Position numbers and translations under genes: made by a program
The notes under the pieces: model-generated
Databases searched by the model: none
The model's input: only the letters and a program-made list of their open reading frames with translations
What the model was told of the DNA's origin: nothing
Part shown: positions 2,050 to 30,169 of the stretch, one piece after another
Numbering within the stretch: position 1 is the first letter of the stretch
How the letters are laid out: each line of letters begins with the position of its first letter
IMG/VR virus record: IMGVR_UViG_2737471821_000012
Location: 1-35,193 of that record
Source of the DNA: a virus
Taxonomy: Duplodnaviria > Heunggongvirae > Uroviricota > Caudoviricetes
Strand: one strand, 5' to 3'
DNA: 35,193 bases

Positions 2050-2211
2050 TTACGCGCCAATGCGCCCTTCCTTCTTAAAGCTTTCCATTACTCTCTGATA
2101 AATCTCAGAGTTAACAGACCGACCATTCTCTTCCGCCACCTTGCGGACCAAATCCAATACTTCTTTAGGCCACCGCAAATTGAACTGCGGCATTTTTCTT
2201 GCACCTTGCAT
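2050..2211 (-). CDS. arc: Arc repressor (ribbon-helix-helix), 53 aa
   Basis: Hand translation of the minus strand gives [53 protein letters not shown], nearly identical to P22 Arc as I recall it; below the 60-aa cutoff of the ORF track. Confidence 0.85.
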
Positions 2212-2304
2212 ATTCAACTCCACTTCATTAAATGGTATTACCGTACTACTATTGAAAGCGTACTACTACCGTTCTACCATGTCAATAAATAAAAGGAGAA
2301 TGAC
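2212..2304. promoter_or_regulatory. Divergent arc/ant and mnt promoter-operator region
   Basis: 93-bp gap between divergent arc and mnt; contains two near-identical copies of GTACTACTA(T/C) at 2243-2252 and 2261-2270. Operator assignment is inferred from position only. Confidence 0.4.
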
Positions 2305-2547
2305 GTGGCTAGAAATGATCCGCAATTCAACGTAAGAATGCCAGATGAGATAAAACAGCAACTTACGCATATTGCTGCAACAAATCGCCGCTCGATAAAT
2401 GCAGAGATTATTTCAGCTATCGAACTGTGGATAAAAATTCATAAAGAGCAGCTAATACCTTCAAGTAGTCGAATCCTGACAAAGTCAGAGCAAGAAGCGC
2501 TTGATGTAGCTATCGATGTGTTAAAACGTGTGAGAGATGAGGGATAA
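2305..2547 (+). CDS. mnt: Mnt repressor (ribbon-helix-helix)
   Basis: GTG start at 2305 with AAGGAG 7 nt upstream; N-terminus MARNDPQFNVRMPDEIKQQLTHIAATNRRSINAEI resembles P22 Mnt; divergent from arc. Confidence 0.8.
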   Translation: MARNDPQFNVRMPDEIKQQLTHIAATNRRSINAEIISAIELWIKIHKEQLIPSSSRILTKSEQEALDVAIDVLKRVRDEG

Positions 2548-2549
2548 CC

Positions 2550-2795
2550 ATGGAGCAACAACAAGGGTCGCCATTATCATTGATAATTATGGTGATTTTT
2601 TTCGTTTTCATCTTTTTTATACCTGCTTTAAAAATATCCAAGAAAGCTGGTTTTGACTGGAAGATGGCGGTATGTTTAACAATCCCTGGATTCAACGTGG
2701 TTGCGTGGCTAGCACTTGCGTTCATGGATTGGCCAATTCATAAGTATCTACCAAAAGACATGAATGGGATCATGAGCAAAACTAAGGAGAGTTAA
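2550..2795 (+). CDS. Small membrane protein (two predicted TM helices), unknown function
   Basis: 81-aa ORF starting 3 nt after the mnt stop; two hydrophobic stretches (LSLIIMVIFFVFIFFIPAL and VVAWLALAFMDW); locally AT-rich. Confidence 0.6.
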   Translation: MEQQQGSPLSLIIMVIFFVFIFFIPALKISKKAGFDWKMAVCLTIPGFNVVAWLALAFMDWPIHKYLPKDMNGIMSKTKES

Positions 2796-2799
2796 CCAT

Positions 2800-3285
2800 A
2801 TGAAAAAATCACTGTTAATTATCCCGCTTCTGCTGGCTGGATGCGCAAAAGTAAGTGACTACCAAGCAAGTTGCGAACAACGCTATCAAAAGCTTAGCGA
2901 TATGGCTAATTGCCTTGATGCCAGCGTGAAGAACGACTCACGCATGGCATCAGCACCAACACCTAAGCTGTATGTCCTTGCTGCGAAGATGCTCGGACAA
3001 GGTGTCGATGAAGGAAAGATAAGTGACGCGCAGGCAAGACTTGAGCTTCAGAATCTTTATGTTCAATTACAAAGCCAAGAACAAGCCCAACAAATAGCGC
3101 AAAGCCAAGCATTCCAGCAGGCTTTATTGAATTATCAGGCTGTAAACACAATGCAAGCGATCGAGCAAAAAGCGAGGCAGCCTGTTATAACTCAACCTTA
3201 CCCAACGCGTGTTGACACCTATACAAACTGCAATTCAGGATTTGGAAATACCGTCACATGCAACAGTAGCAGCAACATTAGATAA
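2800..3285 (+). CDS. Predicted lipoprotein with Gln-rich helical region, unknown function
   Basis: 161 aa; N-terminus MKKSLLIIPLLLAGC has a lipobox (LAGC), with Ala after the lipidated Cys; Q-rich stretch QLQSQEQAQQIAQSQAFQQALL; four further Cys; tightly spaced after the 81-aa ORF. Confidence 0.65.
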   Translation: MKKSLLIIPLLLAGCAKVSDYQASCEQRYQKLSDMANCLDASVKNDSRMASAPTPKLYVLAAKMLGQGVDEGKISDAQARLELQNLYVQLQSQEQAQQIAQSQAFQQALLNYQAVNTMQAIEQKARQPVITQPYPTRVDTYTNCNSGFGNTVTCNSSSNIR

Positions 3286-3287
3286 AG

Positions 3288-5402
3288 CTATTCATATTCA
3301 TTCATACCGCTTAACGAGGCGACAATACCAGCTCTCGACAAGCGATTGAATTCATCGCTACCAATAGCATCGCGTATTGCTTTTACGGCGGCCTTATTTG
3401 CCATAAATCTGCGTTCCGCCGCCGCTAATGCTTCTTTGCTTCCGCCTGCTCTTACTGCTTTGGTGGCTTCCTGAACAGCTTTCTCTATCGCATATCGACC
3501 ACTACGTGTGGTGGCAATTTTAGATACAGCGCCTTTTAACCCAGCGCCAACTAAAGCACCCGCGGCAGCGCCTGCAATGCCCCCTCCAGCGCCACCAACA
3601 ATGGCACCTGATGTTGAGTTGGCAATTGCATTTAACACCGTTGATGTGACGTTGGATAAACCAGCATCCAGATCGCGTAGTACATTGGCAGTTCTCCCTG
3701 TTCTTTCAATATACTGCTGAGGTTTCACTGCCGCTCTTGCAAGAGTGCCATATGCATCAGCAATTCTTCCAAGTTCTGAGGAATATCTGCTAATGGCTTT
3801 TACATTTTGTGGGGTAAGTATCCCTGCGATATGGTTAATTCCTGCTGCATCAGATTTGCCACCACGTACACCATGCGAGATAGCATCCTGCAACATTGAT
3901 GATATAGCAGGAACACGCTCTGATTCTGGCAGCGCGCGGATCATAGAATGGAATCCAGCAGGACCATTAAGACCTTTAGCTGACGATGCTTGAAGAGATT
4001 TTACTCCATTCGTAATCAGTGCATCTGTTGCCAAATCACGCCCAAAAACAGACTCTGCACTCTCTTGTGCGGATAGCCTCGCTTTAGACAGATCATTAGC
4101 TTTTTGCCAGTCATCAAAAAATCCGCCGTTTTCCGCCATTGTGCGCATATCATCAGTAATTGCCCGACGTATTTCCCCTGCTCTCCTTGCCGCATTTGCC
4201 TCTCCACTACGCTTATATTTTTGCTCCGCATCAGCAAATTTCGCTCTCCATGCTTTCATGCCATCAAATGTTACTCCACCTTGATTGTTTGCCTGAACAA
4301 ACTGTTTCATTTCAGGAGTAAGCGGTATGCCAGCAGATCGCTCTGCCTGAATAACGGCATTACCATTTAGCATTCTTGCTTTTTGATTTGGCATTGTTGA
4401 CCGCACGTCATCCCATGCCGCGCGCTCAGCATCCTTCATCTGATCAAGATTTTGAAGAATCCTTTGTTTTATAGCCGCACTTTTTTCTGATGCCGTTCCA
4501 GATGCGGCCCCAAATTCATCAAGGTTTCGACTTAACTTTGATGATATTTCGTTAAATGCTGCCTGATGGGCATCCTGAACAATCCCTGGTGTTGATGCCA
4601 ATGCGCCTTCGGCTTGTGCAATTCCACGACTTCCAGATCGCATTCCTGGTGTTAATGCGTTTATATCAATTCCAGCAGACTCAGCCGCTTTTGCTACATC
4701 TTCGGACACATTAGCGGCCTGACTGGCAATTGACTGACGCCCAGCACCTGACTTTGCCATCTTGGAAACATCATTAGCAGAATTCAGTGCTGCACCACCA
4801 AGAGCCTGTGAAACCCTTGGCGCAATAACGCGCCCGACACCTGAAAGAACGCCTTGAGCACCAATATTGATACCACCGTTAATGGCAGCATTTTGTGCAA
4901 AATCACCCTCCTGATTTGCAGCATCAGCAAGAGAACCGGCAATCATGTTTCCTGCGGAACCGATGTCTCCTGCGAGCTTTGCTGGCGCTCCAGCAGCTTT
5001 TGCTGCTGTGCCAATTGGCAGGAGATACCCACCAATTGTTTCACCGGCTTGCGCATAAGGGTCTGTCGGTCGATCGACTGGACGATAGACATCATCCAAA
5101 ACCTTGGGGCCACCAAGCCCCTGGCTGATTGCATTAATCAGACTTGCGCCACCCTGCAATACGTCAAATGGTATGTTTACCAGACCACGGCCAGCCTGTT
5201 CTGCAATTTGCCCTGCGCTTTGACCACCAGTGAGCCAGTCAGTGGCTTTTCCTACCAGAGATTGTTCTTCTGGCTGCGATTGGTTTTGAGTGGATTGATC
5301 ACCAGAAGACAGCATCTGAGCAATGCGACGTGCTCCCTCAGTATCGCCGGCAGCATCAGCATTCCTTAACGCCGTCATCAACTGTTCGCGACTATAGGCC
5401 AT
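3288..5402 (-). CDS. DNA ejection/injection protein, P22 gp16-like
   Basis: 704-aa Gly/Ala-rich protein, last of three consecutive ejection-protein-like ORFs after the tail needle gene; assigned by position and composition. Confidence 0.65.
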
Positions 5403-25041: not shown

Positions 25042-25320
25042 TCAGGCCTCGAAGAATTCGCCGTTCTTCGGGGCTTTTTCTTTTGTCAGCATTCTGGCTA
25101 CTTGCTTAGCCAGTTCCGCCAACTCCTCGTCTTCAACACCCCATTCAAGAACAGCAAGAAGCATTCCCATTTTGGGGATGAAGCTGTCTTTCCATCGCGA
25201 AATTTGCGATTCATTAATCCCTAACGCGTCGGCAACCTTTCGCTGACCACGTACAGCAATTCGATTCAGGATGTTGCTTGTAATTGCATTCGCTTTCTTG
25301 CGAGTACTTGTAAGTTGCAT
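25042..25320 (-). CDS. cII: CII transcriptional activator
   Basis: 92 aa; core SQISRWK...IPKMGMLLAVLEWGVEDEELAELAKQVA closely matches lambda CII as recalled. Confidence 0.9.
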   Translation of the reverse strand: MQLTSTRKKANAITSNILNRIAVRGQRKVADALGINESQISRWKDSFIPKMGMLLAVLEWGVEDEELAELAKQVARMLTKEKAPKNGEFFEA

Positions 25321-25378: not shown

Positions 25379-25422
25379 TCCCGCATTTCGGCGGGAATGA
25401 GGACCATGACTGTTAAAGAGCG
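25379..25422 (-). promoter_or_regulatory. nutR (boxA plus boxB)
   Basis: On the minus strand, boxA CGCTCTTTAACA (plus 25411-25422) then boxB hairpin TTCCCGCCGAAATGCGGGAA (plus 25379-25398), between cro and cII. Confidence 0.6.
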
Positions 25423-25428
25423 GTGTTA

Positions 25429-25623
25429 CTATTTGTTTTTCTTGTTGCTTGGGAAAGGACGAACTTCCTCTCCAATCACACTGCCATCAGGCTTTACCGT
25501 AACCATAATGTTACGGCCTGCCAGAATGGCCTTACTGATAGCGCACTGGATTACACCAAAGTCACTGGCTGCTTTAGCCTGTCCATGGATTTTGGCGTAA
25601 TCGGCAAGTGTCATTCGAATCAT
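25429..25623 (-). CDS. cro: Cro repressor
   Basis: ORF 25429..25629; probable ATG at 25623 with GGAGAG upstream; sequence ...[45 protein letters not shown]...FPSNKK resembles lambda Cro as recalled. Confidence 0.85.
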
Positions 25624-25629
25624 ATGCAC

Positions 25630-25729
25630 TCTCCGTTATTAACCATGAACAAAGAATACCACAGGTATTCAAAGCAATCAATACTCAGGGTATTTTTAGT
25701 TTAAGTACCTTAGCTATTAGAATTAAGCT
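25630..25729. promoter_or_regulatory. Right operator/promoter region (OR) between divergent cro and cI
   Basis: Contains the 17-bp palindrome GAATACC-ACA-GGTATTC (25654-25670) and a related site AATACTCAGGGTATT (about 25679-25693); cI starts at 25730 with no evident Shine-Dalgarno, consistent with a leaderless transcript. Confidence 0.6.
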
Positions 25730-26446
25730 ATGGAAAATAAAAAATCACTGACGACAGAACAGCTCGAAGACGCTAAGCGGCTTAAGGCTTTGTATGAGTC
25801 AAAAAAGAAAGAATTGGGAATAACCCAATACTCAATCGCTGATGAACTGGGTATCACCCAAGGAGCGGTAGGGCATTATCTTAATGGCAGAAACGCGCTA
25901 AACGTTGAGGTCGCATCTGGTTTTGCACGTTTGTTGCAAGTCTCAATTGCTGATTTTAGCCAGTCAATTGCTGCCAAGGTTGCAGAACAGGCAGAAAGCC
26001 TTAAGAGCGATGCCAACGTAAGGTATGCAGGGGAATACAGAGCAGGAAAGAGGTATCCGGTGTTAAGCAGTATCCAGGCTGGCTCGTGGTGTGAAGCATG
26101 CGAACCATACACCATTAAAGACATAGATGTTTGGCTTGAGTCTGACGCGCATATTCAAGGTAATGCGTTCTGGCTTAAAGTGGAAGGTGATTCAATGACG
26201 GCACCGGTTGGGTTAAGCATTCCAGAGGGAACATTCGTTCTTTTCGATACCGGAAGGGAGGCGATCAACGGCAGCTTGGTCATAGCAAAACTTTCTGACT
26301 CTAACGAAGCAACATTCAAGAAGCTGATAATCGACGGCGGAAATAAATACCTCAAGGGACTTAATCCTGCATGGCCTCTCGTGCCAATCAATGGAAACTG
26401 CAAGATTATAGGCGTTGCAATTGAGACAAAACTAAGGCTGGTTTGA
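25730..26446 (+). CDS. cI: CI repressor (HTH N-terminal domain, S24 LexA-like autopeptidase C-terminal domain)
   Basis: 238 aa; HTH region (QYSIADELGITQGAVGHYLNG), GDSM catalytic Ser motif and downstream Lys; divergent from cro. Confidence 0.9.
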   Translation: MENKKSLTTEQLEDAKRLKALYESKKKELGITQYSIADELGITQGAVGHYLNGRNALNVEVASGFARLLQVSIADFSQSIAAKVAEQAESLKSDANVRYAGEYRAGKRYPVLSSIQAGSWCEACEPYTIKDIDVWLESDAHIQGNAFWLKVEGDSMTAPVGLSIPEGTFVLFDTGREAINGSLVIAKLSDSNEATFKKLIIDGGNKYLKGLNPAWPLVPINGNCKIIGVAIETKLRLV

Positions 26447-26463
26447 TCACGCAAGGGGCGATT

Positions 26464-26832
26464 ATGGTTGGAACCGCTATAGCAAGCTTTTTTGGGATGT
26501 TGGCAATCTCGACAATTTACGGCTTAGCGCATGCTTTTATTGCGAAATCTCTATCAGAAAAAATAAGCCAGGCTTGGGCGCATAGATCAGCTCGTTTCAT
26601 GATTCTGGTGATCATAGCAATACAAGGGATATCTGCATTTATCCTCTATGGATCAAGCTTATACCTATTGTATCAAGGCGCGACATTTACGCCTTACACC
26701 AGTGATTACGGAACTCTATACGATGGTAGTGAAGACATCACTGTGGCTTGGATCGTCTTTGGTTTATCTATGGCCGTGTCTGTTGTAGCAGACATCATTA
26801 AGGTAATTCTCGTCTTAACCTTCGCTGACTAA
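26464..26832 (+). CDS. Polytopic membrane protein co-transcribed with cI, unknown function
   Basis: ORF track 26443..26832 (TTG); likely ATG at 26464 with AAGGGG upstream, 17 nt after the cI stop; about three hydrophobic helices. Confidence 0.55.
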   Translation: MVGTAIASFFGMLAISTIYGLAHAFIAKSLSEKISQAWAHRSARFMILVIIAIQGISAFILYGSSLYLLYQGATFTPYTSDYGTLYDGSEDITVAWIVFGLSMAVSVVADIIKVILVLTFAD

Positions 26833-26961
26833 CCTATAATCCCGGCAGCAATAGCTATCGGGATCCACTTCACATATCCCGCATAAAAAGCACTGAACAA
26901 GCAGACACCGAAAAAATAAATATCCTTTGTATTCATTTGCTTATCATTATTTCATCAAAAA

Positions 26962-27005
26962 TAAATACCTTGGGTATTTACACAATAAAATACCTACAGT
27001 ATTCT
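26962..27005. promoter_or_regulatory. Left operator region (OL)
   Basis: Palindrome TAAATACC-TTG-GGTATTTA (26962-26980) and related site AAAATACCTACAGTATTCT (26987-27005), sharing the AATACC half-site with OR. Confidence 0.55.
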
Positions 27006-27050
27006 TTAGCCATCAGCAGGACGCTGGTAGCCAAACGGAACAGATTGGCA

Positions 27051-27092
27051 GGCTCTTTAACATTGATGGGATTGTCCCGCCGAAATGCGGGA
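27051..27092 (+). promoter_or_regulatory. nutL (boxA plus boxB)
   Basis: boxA GGCTCTTTAACA (27051-27062) then boxB hairpin TCCCGCCGAAATGCGGGA (27075-27092); the boxB RNA is identical to that of nutR. Confidence 0.6.
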
Positions 27093-27199
27093 ACCAAAGA
27101 GTAGTTGGCTTTGGGGTGACGTGAAGTGCAGCTGCACGACGGCAACCGGAAGATAAGCACCCGGCGCGTCACCGCCAAAGTCAATCATCGGAGGTCAAC

Positions 27200-27499
27200 A
27201 TGACAGTAGTCATTACATATCTGGCTGACGATAACGCCAGAAATCGCCGCAGAGCACGCAGACAGGCTCAACGTGAACAGGCAATGCAAGAGCAGCGACT
27301 GGCGCGAAAAATTGCGCTAAAGCTCTCTGGTTGCGTCAGAGCAGATAAAGCAGCATCACTCGGAAGCCTTCGCTGCAAGAAGGCAGAAGAAGTCGAGCGT
27401 AAACAGAATCGTATTTACTACCGCAAGCCACGCAGTGAAATGGGTGTGACTTGCTCAGGCCGCCAGAAAATGAAATTAGGCAGCAAACCACTTATTTGA
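27200..27499 (+). CDS. N: Antitermination protein N
   Basis: 99 aa; arginine-rich motif NARNRRRARRQAQ near the N-terminus; C-terminus RKQNRIYYRKPRSEMGVTCSGRQKMKLGSKPLI closely resembles lambda N as recalled. Confidence 0.85.
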   Translation: MTVVITYLADDNARNRRRARRQAQREQAMQEQRLARKIALKLSGCVRADKAASLGSLRCKKAEEVERKQNRIYYRKPRSEMGVTCSGRQKMKLGSKPLI

Positions 27500-27507
27500 G
27501 GTGAGAT

Positions 27508-27978
27508 ATGACAAAATCATGGAGCGTACCTTTTCCTGAATCAGAAACTGAACATGATGGAATGCCTGTTTTCTGGAGATTCCAGGCGACAGTTGAAGAA
27601 GATGGGATAAAAATATTCGCACTTCAATATATAGCTTTTCATCAGACAGAGCATTATGCATGGTTGGTTCCTGCGCATTGGATTGTTAATTTTAAACCAG
27701 CACCAAATCAGTGGTTACAGGAATGGAAACAAAGGAGAAATAGATATGCAATTAAGAAAGTAGCAAAAAATGCAGAAAGATCTTTTGCATTCCCAACGAA
27801 GAAACTTGCCATTGAGAGTTTATTGCGCCGGAAGAAATACCATTTAATGAGAATCAAACAAGATTTGGCTGTTGTATCAACTCTTGTTGATGGGATGAAG
27901 AATATTGATACATCAACACCAGATATTGAATATAACTTTGGACACAACCAAGAAACAGAAAATTGGGTATTCTACTAG
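27508..27978 (+). CDS. Hypothetical protein, AT-rich cargo gene immediately downstream of N
   Basis: 156-aa ORF 8 nt after the N stop; visibly AT-rich compared with flanking phage genes; followed by a terminator-like hairpin. Confidence 0.5.
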   Translation: MTKSWSVPFPESETEHDGMPVFWRFQATVEEDGIKIFALQYIAFHQTEHYAWLVPAHWIVNFKPAPNQWLQEWKQRRNRYAIKKVAKNAERSFAFPTKKLAIESLLRRKKYHLMRIKQDLAVVSTLVDGMKNIDTSTPDIEYNFGHNQETENWVFY

Positions 27979-27980
27979 GC

Positions 27981-28007
27981 CGCATAGTCGGCCTTTATTT
28001 TTGGCAT
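27981..28007 (+). terminator. Rho-independent terminator-like hairpin
   Basis: GGCCG-CATAGT-CGGCC followed by TTTATTTTTGG. Confidence 0.5.
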
Positions 28008-28024
28008 AAACAACAGAGGCTAAC

Positions 28025-28321
28025 ATGGAATTTAAAGGTACTGAAGGTAAGTGGGAAATAATGATGGATGGCGATGAGATTAAAATCATCCAGGCAGACT
28101 CACTTGAAAATGGCGCAGGCTGGCGTTCGTATATTGCAATCTGTGAGGAAGTTCAATGTATTGAAGATGCCAATCTAATAGCGGCAGCACCTGACCTTCT
28201 CGAAGCACTTCAGTTATTACTTAAGCAATCCAAAAATAGAACAACGACAACATATCCAGAATGGTATGGAGCTGTTAATAAAGGTCTTGCAGCAATCAGC
28301 AAGGCTCTGGGAGGTGAATGA
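28025..28321 (+). CDS. Hypothetical protein
   Basis: 98-aa ORF; its stop overlaps the next ORF start in an ATGA motif. Confidence 0.5.
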   Translation: MEFKGTEGKWEIMMDGDEIKIIQADSLENGAGWRSYIAICEEVQCIEDANLIAAAPDLLEALQLLLKQSKNRTTTTYPEWYGAVNKGLAAISKALGGE

Positions 28322-28530
28322 TGTGCGAGTTTTATGAAGCAGATATCAAACGCCCAGAAATGGCAAGTGATGCGACATTACGTGATTACTTCGCTGCTAA
28401 GGCTATGGCAGCAATAGTGCGCAGATGGGACGGACATTCCTTTGGCGGTGGACAGAATTCACCACAGTACAAAGAATTAGCAGATGATGCCTACTTTATT
28501 GCTGATGCCATGCTCAAAGCTCGCGAATAA
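28318..28530 (+). CDS. Hypothetical protein
   Basis: 70-aa ORF translationally coupled to the upstream 98-aa ORF (ATGA overlap at 28318-28321). Confidence 0.5.
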
Positions 28531-28626
28531 GCACTGTGTATTCATTCCAACGAGTGAATACACGGAGCAATGTCGCTCGTAACTAAACAGGAGCCGACTT
28601 GTTCTGATTATTGGAAATCTTCTTTG

Positions 28627-28872
28627 CCCTCCATCACCGCCCCCGGTATCCCGCTCATGCTGGCGAACCCAGACACGCAGAGTCTCCGGCGTACAGCCAA
28701 TCTTTGGAGCAATGGAACAAATTGTCGCCCATTGTGAGTCATATTCGCTCTGACTTTCCAGAACCATACGGACTGCCCGTTGACGGACTTCGGGGGAAAA
28801 ACGAGTATTTTTAGTCATCCTGTTTACCTCTTTCTCAGGAAGTTTAGTCTCCAGGATTCCCGGGGCGGTTCA
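28627..28872 (-). mobile_element. Truncated IS3-family element (IS629/IS1203-like): left terminal repeat plus the first ~64 codons of orfA
   Basis: Minus strand reads TGAACCGCCCCGGGAATCCTGGAGACTAAACTTCCTGAGAAAGAGGTAAACAGG ATG ACT AAA AAT ACT...; ORF 28477..28818 begins [23 protein letters not shown]...[14 protein letters not shown] as in IS3-family OrfA (recalled), then diverges into unrelated sequence. Confidence 0.75.
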
Positions 28873-28907
28873 TCCAGTGTGAGGGCAATTTTTTTGACGG
28901 AGGATAT

Positions 28908-29876
28908 ATGAGTGAAGTAACAGATTTAGTTGTTATTGAAAAAGCAAATGCAATGACTGTATTTCAGTCTGCCGACCAGATTGAAGAAATCCTTCAAAAG
29001 GTTGAACATGAAGTTATGTCCTTTGTGCCTGATATCACAACGGCAAAGGGCAGAAAGGAGATCGCTTCTCTGGCGTATAAAGTTGCGCAGACGAAAACAT
29101 ATCTCGATGGTCTTGGCAAAGACCTTGTTGCTGAACTGAAGGAAATTCCAAAGCTAATTGATGCCAACCGCAAGACAGTGCGTGATCGCCTTGATGAGCT
29201 GAAAGCCAAGGCACGCCAGCCTCTTACTGATTATGAGGAAGAACAGGCACGGATTAAAGCCGAAGAAGAAGCTAAGGCAGCAGCTGAAGCTCTCGCAAAG
29301 CAAATTGAGTCTGACCATGAAATAGCGATTTTGATGGATCGCGAATTTGACCGCCAAAGAGAAGAGGCAAGACTCAAAGCGGAGCAGGAAAAGCGAGAGC
29401 ATGAAGAACGCTTAAAAAGAGAAGCTGAAGAGAAAGCCAGAGCAGAAGCCGAAGCAAAGGCAAAAGCCCAAATTGAAGCAGCAGCAAGGCGAGAAGCAGA
29501 AGCTAAGGCCGCAGCGGAACGTGCAGAGCGTGAACGCATTGAAGCCGAGCAACGAGCACAGCGCGAAGCAAAAGAGGCAGCAGAACAAGCTGAAAGAGAA
29601 AAGCAGGCGGCAATTGAAGCAGAACGCCGAAAAGCACAGGAGGAGGCTGAACGAATCCGGCGCGAGGCTGAAGCAAAAGAGCAAGCCAGAATAGCAGAAG
29701 AAAAAAGAATCAAGGACGAAGAAGAGCACAGAGCAAAGGATAAAGATCACCGGAAAGAAGTAAATAACAAAATACTTGCTGACCTTATCAAGGTTGGCGC
29801 ATCAGAAGATGTTGCTAAAAATATCATAACAGCCATCGTAAAAGGCGAAGTATTCGCAACAAAAATAACCTACTAA
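28908..29876 (+). CDS. Highly charged coiled-coil protein (Glu/Ala/Lys/Arg-rich repeats), unknown function
   Basis: 322 aa; ordinary N-terminal ~100 aa, then ~170 aa of low-complexity EAKA/REAE repeats, then a short C-terminal domain; the repeats create several spurious overlapping ORFs on both strands. Confidence 0.65.
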   Translation: MSEVTDLVVIEKANAMTVFQSADQIEEILQKVEHEVMSFVPDITTAKGRKEIASLAYKVAQTKTYLDGLGKDLVAELKEIPKLIDANRKTVRDRLDELKAKARQPLTDYEEEQARIKAEEEAKAAAEALAKQIESDHEIAILMDREFDRQREEARLKAEQEKREHEERLKREAEEKARAEAEAKAKAQIEAAARREAEAKAAAERAERERIEAEQRAQREAKEAAEQAEREKQAAIEAERRKAQEEAERIRREAEAKEQARIAEEKRIKDEEEHRAKDKDHRKEVNNKILADLIKVGASEDVAKNIITAIVKGEVFATKITY

Positions 29877-29900
29877 TAAAACCAACATAAGGAACCACCC

Positions 29901-30032
29901 ATGATTTACGCAATCGCGGGAGGCGCTCGCATGGGTGCCTTCCAACTAAATGAATCTTTACTTGAACGAATCACCCGTAAATTACGTGACGGATGGAAAA
30001 GAGTTGAGGTCTTATTATGCGCAATGAAATAG
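29901..30032 (+). CDS. cIII: CIII (protector of CII from FtsH)
   Basis: Hand-translated 43-aa ORF MIYAIAGGARMGAFQLNESLLERITRKLRDGWKRVEVLLCAMK; central ESLLERITRKLRDGWKR matches lambda CIII as recalled; AAGGAA upstream. Confidence 0.8.
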   Translation: MIYAIAGGARMGAFQLNESLLERITRKLRDGWKRVEVLLCAMK

Positions 30033-30169
30033 CCATCAATCACCAGATGCTTCGTGCTGCACAGAACAAAGCAGTAATAGCCAGATTTATTGGTGATTCA
30101 AAAATGTGGATTGAAGCAAATAAAGCGATGAAATCAGCTATCAACCTTCCGTGGTATCGCAGGAAATGA
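30017..30169 (+). CDS. Kil-like small protein
   Basis: Hand-translated 50-aa ORF overlapping the cIII 3' end; position after cIII and an FIGD-KM motif that I tentatively recall from lambda Kil. Confidence 0.4.
   Translation: MRNEIAINHQMLRAAQNKAVIARFIGDSKMWIEANKAMKSAINLPWYRRK

Follow-up and report, generated by a model that had tools for sequence, protein, structure and literature searches.

The 35,193-nucleotide (nt) stretch of viral DNA analyzed here, IMG/VR record IMGVR_UViG_2737471821_000012 (hereafter the window), encodes three open reading frames (ORFs) of 156, 98 and 70 amino acids (aa) at positions 27508-28530, directly downstream of the gene for the N antiterminator. Our analysis suggests that this block is probably composed of three independently assorting accessory cassettes, which belong to the pL operon of a P22-like lambdoid prophage and occupy its variable segment between N and cIII. 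The three genes are probably neither lysogenic-conversion genes nor a toxin/antitoxin pair. An original prediction, made from the raw sequence, had taken a hairpin behind the 156-aa gene as the mark of a moron and the ATGA overlap between the 98- and 70-aa genes as the mark of a toxin/antitoxin-like unit. Both readings were overturned by comparison with related phages.

The three ORFs are present as predicted, all on the + strand: the 156-aa gene at 27508-27978, the 98-aa gene at 28025-28321 and the 70-aa gene at 28318-28530, the latter two sharing the sequence ATGA at 28318-28321. Windowed calculation of GC content confirmed that the 156-aa ORF is markedly AT-rich and makes up the most AT-rich stretch of the 35-kb window, with a GC content of 0.365 (0.293 at third codon positions, GC3) versus 0.478 for the window. 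A GC content this low is reached by only 0.17% of 471-nt windows, and all of the lowest ones are located at the position of this ORF. The block as a whole has a GC content of 0.404, a value as low as that being found in 0.26% of 1023-nt windows. The composition of the block is not ordinary, and no homology to a core early function emerged. Searches of Pfam, NCBIfam and PADLOC returned nothing meaningful for the three proteins, and the PHROGs matches were to families of unknown function only: phrog_1636 for the 156-aa protein (E = 2.7e-112), phrog_1273 for the 98-aa protein (E = 8.3e-32) and the C-terminal part of phrog_2201 for the 70-aa protein (E = 1.2e-19). Profile searches with all three families against Protein Data Bank (PDB) sequences gave no significant match. 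In agreement with their description as ORFs of unknown function, our homology and structure-prediction searches linked none of the three to a solved structure or to a family that has been characterised.

By its gene content the window is a P22-like lambdoid prophage, with the early-left operon on the + strand. The window contains exactly four copies of the palindrome AATAC-N5-GTATT, compared with 0.01 expected by chance. Two copies, at 25655 and 25680 (the OR pair, spanning 25655-25694), lie between cro (25429-25629, - strand) and the S24/HTH repressor gene cI (25730-26446, + strand), both identified by Pfam. The other two, at 26964 and 26989 (the OL pair, spanning 26964-27003), overlie the sequence TTTACA-17-TATTCT at 26977-27005, the sole promoter-like site upstream of N. 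Operators and promoter thus occupy 26964-27005 on the + strand. Because two copies of the operator palindrome from the cro-cI interval cover pL, this promoter is presumably repressed in the lysogen. Between pL and N lies nutL (27052-27091, + strand), a composite of boxA GCTCTTTAAC and the boxB hairpin CCCGCCGAAATGCGGG, the stem of which folds in RNA structure prediction. The composite motif occurs exactly twice in the window (0 expected by chance). Its second copy, nutR (25380-25421, - strand), sits between cro and the CII gene (25042-25320, - strand; Pfam), with boxA and boxB motifs identical to those of nutL and a different spacer.

The N gene itself (99 aa, 27200-27499, + strand) matches phrog_271, 'anti-termination protein N-like' (E = 6.8e-37), and encodes a protein 98% identical to the annotated N of phage CUS-3; its match to Pfam N_peptide is weak (E = 0.0013, below cut-off). 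On the far side of the block, the same-strand run continues into cIII and kil (29901-30169, + strand; Pfam Lambda_CIII, E = 4e-15, and Lambda_Kil, E = 1.9e-19), where the variable N-cIII segment ends, and from there into the recombination genes. Operators common to OR and pL, two nut sites and the same-strand continuation into cIII, kil and recombination genes point to an N-antiterminated pL operon, and the arrangement corresponds, as judged from these motifs, to the classical OL/pL-nutL-N and OR/pR-cro-nutR. The slot after N had been expected to be the one that holds host-interaction genes such as ral and sieB in lambda and P22, an expectation that was supported: the slot is variable, and CUS-3 carries ral there.

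Where does one cassette end and the next begin? An intrinsic-terminator-like hairpin with a U-tract lies between the 156- and 98-aa genes at 27977-28002 (+ strand). Its stem AGGCCG/CGGCCT, closed by the 6-nt loop CATAGT, occupies 27977-27994, overlaps the stop codon of the 156-aa gene and is followed by TTTATTTTT up to 28002. The hairpin and its T-run had been correctly noticed in the raw sequence, but were placed a few bases off, at 27981-28007. The hairpin is credible as a terminator because it is conserved in related phages. All locus counts given here refer to the best-scoring or first-found loci, taken from the best 80 IMG/VR loci per query. Among 76 enteric loci seeded on the 98-aa gene, about 70 have the hairpin and T-run directly upstream of that gene, and at least 12 different sequences lie upstream of the unit formed by hairpin and 98-aa gene. 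Two stem variants occur, GGCCGCATAGTCGGCC and AGGCTGCCTGATGGTGGCCT, both of which fold (-9.6 and -13.9 kcal/mol, respectively). The loci that carry the 156-aa gene behave differently: in 64 of 71 the hairpin does not follow this gene, and another junction, beginning with TACGAATAAGCACTGTGTATTCA, follows the stop codon instead. In the window, that same junction follows the 70-aa gene. The 98-aa gene is the neighbor of the 156-aa gene in only about 7 of these 71 loci. Because the terminator travels with the 98-aa gene behind varied upstream sequences, and not with the 156-aa gene, it represents the 5' boundary of the 98-aa cassette. As a general trait of the 98-aa family, an upstream terminator was considered and rejected, being present in 22 of 95 distant members versus 18 of 95 downstream control windows. 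The link between terminator and 98-aa gene holds for the enteric cassette only.

The 98-aa protein is acidic (pI 4.5) and carries the motif LIAAAPDLLEAL. Upstream of its gene we found no promoter-like site, but only the terminator and a leader of 22 nt. Among the full-length homologues listed, nearly all have a precomputed match to PF27050.1, one of these homologues being 97% identical. A direct Pfam scan of the 98-aa protein, carried out with a Pfam copy that lacks the PF27050 model, gave no match, and nothing on PF27050 was found in the searchable literature. The AlphaFold2 model (predicted local distance difference test score, pLDDT, 74.7) consists of a small beta-sheet and a helical hairpin, and fold searches with it retrieved generic structural neighbours only. 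The family is internally mosaic: three parts are kept, namely EFKGTxGxW at the N-terminus, the motif LIAAAPDLLEAL and the tail AAISKALGEE, and the segment between motif and tail is swapped for unrelated sequence in different members. Residues 4-52 are about 50% identical to sequences in virulent myoviruses of Klebsiella, Cronobacter, Proteus and Salmonella, with genomes of about 145 kb, in which the match often spans two annotated ORFs. A lysogeny-specific role of the 98-aa protein is disfavoured, because relatives of its N-terminal half occur in these virulent phages.

Do the 98- and 70-aa genes belong together? The 98-aa gene ends with the codons GGA GGT GAA TGA, which include the Shine-Dalgarno sequence of the 70-aa gene, GGAGGTGA. 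The 70-aa protein is, like the 98-aa protein, small and acidic. Its family has 427 homologues, is widespread in environmental phage contigs and is characterised by the consensus element GGPAFP and by ADAMLKARE. In almost all of 80 loci that carry a close homologue of the 98-aa gene (identity of 75% or higher), the stop codon of this homologue is overlapped by the following ORF, by 4 nt or 1 nt. This ORF is one of three unrelated partners, of 52/53 aa (about 34 loci), 62 aa (about 25) or 70/67 aa (about 17). We also sampled the wider 98-aa family in viral contigs by the motif AAP(D/E)LLEAL, which yielded 114 diverse members with enough downstream sequence. An overlapping downstream start was present in 75 of them (56 of the ATGA type), and 111 downstream ORFs fell into 96 clusters, with the 70-aa family accounting for 5 of the 111. 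Viewed from the 70-aa side, a 98-aa family gene lies directly upstream in 10 of 80 family members. Since the overlap occurs whatever gene follows the 98-aa gene, it says little on a specific partnership. An obligate two-protein unit is unsupported; the partner varies across the family.

A more permissive form of partnership would have the 98-aa family act with whichever small gene is coupled to it, as the conserved partner (a chaperone, adaptor or neutraliser) of a hypervariable effector, of which the 70-aa protein would be one. We consider this unlikely, although it accounts for the overlapping starts in 75 of 114 diverse members, for the conserved C-terminal Gly-Glu codons that supply the Shine-Dalgarno sequence of the next gene, and for the 70-aa family being the largest partner cluster in a pairing that recurs in distant phages. 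Overlapping starts are, however, common across the prophage, and also occur before 70-aa family genes with unrelated neighbours. Moreover, 39 of the 114 members have no overlapping partner, and 96 unrelated partner clusters fit poorly with a single protein-protein interface.

The stricter version, and the one originally predicted, is a dedicated unit of the two genes, which would act as a toxin/antitoxin-like pair or as an anti-defence factor of two parts. We judge it to be very unlikely. The ATGA overlap is real, both exact proteins are found on about 270-300 contigs with the longest contig in common, and the same family pairing is seen in four distant phages. The co-occurrence counts point the other way: close 98-aa homologues are mostly followed by the 52/53- or 62-aa ORF rather than by the 70/67-aa gene, and most 70-aa family genes have no 98-aa family gene upstream. 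In addition, the pair has no promoter of its own that we could find, and at E <= 0.1 neither protein matched a toxin, antitoxin or defence profile in Pfam, NCBIfam or PADLOC.

The 156-aa gene is delimited on its left side by a short joint. Its start codon lies 8 nt past the stop codon of N, and in the 80 IMG/VR loci seeded on the 156-aa protein the 28 nt before the start are conserved (27480-27507 of the window, + strand). They comprise the last five codons of the preceding gene, SKPLI*, and the ribosome-binding site. The sequence GCAGCAAACCACTTATTTGAGGTGAGAT is found upstream of the gene in most loci, even when the sequence further upstream differs. In phage Bas106, for example, it is a 54-aa ORF rather than N that has SKPLI* at its end (Bas106 locus 2995-3028). 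Because the left boundary includes the last five codons of whichever gene precedes, recombination at this joint would rewrite the C-terminus of the upstream protein.

The protein encoded by this gene is basic (pI 9.1) and 100% identical to ST933Wp19 (NP_049479), the product of the gene directly after N in the Shiga toxin (Stx) phage 933W. The identical protein is also encoded by BP-4795, Min27, phage 86, many Stx1a phages and the K-12 phage Bas106, and the exact sequence is present on at least 1000 public contigs. Close homologues number 33, and all of those with an organism name come from Enterobacterales. The homologue in Pectobacterium and Brenneria prophages occupies the distal end of this operon, immediately upstream of xis-int. 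A profile search of the whole library widens the family to 87 hits, and most of the more distant ones are 125-160 aa in length. We looked up two distant homologues: both belong to series of small ORFs on one strand, and one lies downstream of a gene for a YqaJ-type exonuclease. The 156-aa protein has no profile match in Pfam, NCBIfam, PADLOC or the PDB sequences, no credible Pfam or PADLOC match was obtained for 65 sampled members of the 87-protein family, and text searches for the identifiers ST933Wp19 and NP_049479 retrieved no study of the gene. The AlphaFold2 model is poor (pLDDT 59.5), with a long helix at residues 98-130 as its only confident part, and a Foldseek search of the PDB with this model returned nothing. 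Given its basic character and this long helix, the 156-aa protein may bind to nucleic acid or to a host protein.

Is the 156-aa gene a moron, that is, a horizontally acquired gene that is expressed autonomously and active in the lysogen? Morons, as defined for HK97 and HK022, have their own promoter and terminator, lie between conserved genes and are expressed from the prophage. In favour of this, no other stretch of the window deviates as much in base composition, the flanks are conserved whether or not the gene is there, and a terminator-like site follows the gene in the window. We nevertheless regard a moron as highly improbable here. A scan for sigma-70 consensus sites found none on the + strand between 27005 and 28449, and hence none between N and the 156-aa gene; only 8 nt separate the two genes. 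The left boundary falls within the final codons of the gene upstream, the terminator is missing behind the gene in most loci and is part of the next cassette, and the promoter upstream is the operator-covered pL.

The right-hand boundary of the block is conserved as well. In 124 loci the same sequence (28525-28632) comes after one of three genes, namely the 156-aa gene, the 62-aa ORF or the 70/67-aa gene. It contains a hairpin with a 14-bp stem and no U-tract at 28534-28565 (+ strand; -22.1 kcal/mol, z = -5.9), which could serve as a recombination boundary or as an element for RNA processing or stabilisation. Next to it lies a fragment of an IS629-like insertion sequence (IS) of the IS3 family (28633-28877, - strand; HTH_Tnp_1, E = 1.4e-07), consisting of a terminal repeat and about 60 OrfA codons. 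Over 247 nt the fragment shows 94.7% identity to IS629 of the O157:H7 Stx2a phage Stx2a_F422, at the end that encodes OrfA, and it lacks OrfB and most of OrfA, the complete element measuring about 1.3 kb. A truncated IS had been predicted to abut the block; the fragment is indeed nearby, but it begins 102 nt past the stop codon of the 70-aa gene and does not abut it.

TCC is found on both sides of the IS fragment, the inner end of which joins phage DNA at a GCCC(T/A)CC microhomology. Phage Bas106 lacks the IS and shares the gene order, with a divergent allele of the 98-aa-family gene; its DNA is 100% identical to 28400-28632 of the window and resumes at 28878. Given the TCC duplication and the contiguous flanks, the simplest history would be that an IS629-like element inserted into the spacer before the 322-aa gene that comes next in the operon, duplicating 3 bp of target, and that a deletion then removed part of the IS itself, without loss of phage DNA. 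That the IS brought in or rearranged the block, as its proximity and the IS629 copy interrupting the 156-aa start in Stx2a_F422 might suggest and as had been predicted, has a negligible chance of being correct, in view of the same gene order and matching flanks in IS-free Bas106 and of the signature of simple insertion and internal deletion. The fragment looks like a later scar that did not deliver the block. In Stx2a_F422 (locus 2099-3420), a complete IS629 sits at the very start of the 156-aa gene, of which a 138-aa remnant is annotated. The N-cIII segment seems to have been hit by IS629 repeatedly.

How would such cassettes be expressed and exchanged? The site at 27977-28002 is the first terminator-like site after pL in the window. 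After loss of the repressor, the 156-aa gene would be transcribed together with N, since it is located before this site, and the 98- and 70-aa genes would require N-modified polymerase, since they lie beyond it. Terminator timing of this kind has an analogy in tL1 of lambda, and on that analogy the 156-aa gene would be transcribed before antitermination and the other two genes only afterwards. Translation of the 70-aa gene is likely to be coupled to that of the 98-aa gene, because its Shine-Dalgarno sequence is within the last 98-aa codons and the two genes share the ATGA. Phages would swap the cassettes by recombining at three short, conserved boundaries: on the left, the five codons that end the preceding gene; upstream of the 98-aa gene, its terminator and leader; and on the right, the junction that contains the 14-bp-stem hairpin. 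The three proteins are probably dispensable lytic-phase factors directed at the host or at its defences, which is the weakest inference of our proposal.

Several points weigh against the interpretation of the block as three independently assorting cassettes. Many of the counted loci are near-identical E. coli prophages and not independent events, so that the number of distinct contexts is sturdier than the raw fractions. The terminator hairpin is modest (z = -1.4 versus shuffles for its -9.6 kcal/mol), and with 8 consensus terminator matches in the region versus 4.7 expected, the match at 27977 would by itself be unremarkable. The AT-rich 156-aa gene could hide weak promoters outside the reach of a sigma-70 consensus scan. 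As to the pairing, the 70-aa family is, with 5 members, the largest cluster of partners (the next, with 4, resembles DUF551 by eye), and among the 10 cases seen from the 70-aa side, four distant environmental phages repeat the pairing together with its ATGA overlap. A loose functional or positional affinity between the two families is therefore possible, because no other single combination is adjacent as often. Finally, the functional assignment of the three genes draws on their position, charge and distribution.

Two more specific ideas strike us as distinctly unlikely, though worth stating. The 156-aa protein (p19 of 933W) would be an immediate-early factor made with N and directed at the host or its defences. 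The 98-aa family would be a widespread phage 'leader' gene, the conserved 3' end of which gives a ribosome-binding site and a recombination joint to an ever-changing coupled small gene. A constant partner with variable cargo may be a general two-gene architecture in temperate and virulent phages, with the 70-aa protein as one such cargo.

The locus represents ordinary cassette mosaicism in a lambdoid early-left operon, and its genes are already common in databases as hypothetical proteins. Our analysis flags three very common, unstudied phage proteins, one of them identical in the Stx phage 933W and the cultivable K-12 phage Bas106. If any of the three is an anti-defence or host-takeover factor, this would bear on the biology of Stx phages.

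The surroundings of the block hold further features. The gene that follows in the operon (28908-29876, + strand; phrog_1376, phrog_21365) encodes a coiled-coil protein of 322 aa that is very rich in Ala, Glu, Lys and Arg, with a local AT skew of up to 0.75; its RefSeq label 'cell envelope biogenesis protein TolA' is probably a low-complexity artefact. Other Pfam matches in the operon setting are a Rad52-type annealing protein, a single-stranded DNA-binding protein (SSB), the anti-RecBCD protein Abc2, an Ead/Ea22-like protein and a DUF551 protein. An Rfam scan of 26400-30000 detected no RNA family. The four operator copies and two nut copies delimit the immunity region cleanly. Between the repressor gene and OL/pL lies a 129-aa hydrophobic ORF (26443-26832, probable start 26464; phrog_6534, function unknown), in a slot after the repressor that we take to correspond to the position of rexAB in lambda. 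By that analogy it is a candidate for an exclusion or defence gene expressed in the lysogen.

How does the block compare with known systems? In the proposed organization of three accessory cassettes, its closest counterpart is phage 933W, which encodes the identical 156-aa protein, likewise directly downstream of N in the early-left operon. There, ST933Wp19, annotated as hypothetical only, is followed by an Ea10/ssb-like gene and not by the 98-aa cassette. In CUS-3, the N of which is nearly identical, this slot contains ral and an ORF of 140 aa. These two CUS-3 proteins have no sequence relation to the 156-aa superfamily; a relationship was rejected at profile comparison probabilities of 0.1-0.2%. 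In slot, strand and operon logic the block resembles the N-cIII accessory genes of lambda, P22 and CUS-3 (ral, sieB, ea10 and gene 17). Of the accessory genes in lambda- and P22-type phages, ral, sieB and gene 17 have roles known from the literature.

With lambdoid morons the 156-aa gene shares the deviant composition and the presence or absence between conserved flanks, but it has no promoter or terminator of its own and lies inside a repressor-controlled operon. Like type II toxin-antitoxin pairs, the 98- and 70-aa genes are two small overlapping ORFs; unlike them, they are not conserved as a pair, show no autonomous promoter and have no homology to known families. A further likeness is to the boundary sequences of lambdoid mosaicism, a concept that reportedly arose from the comparison of HK620. 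The CUS-3 record annotates one boundary sequence as 'bsq5', and it is this annotation, together with the concept itself, that links such sequences to the boundaries in the window. As expected of boundary sequences, the SKPLI* codons, the terminator with its leader and the hairpin junction flank interchangeable genes.

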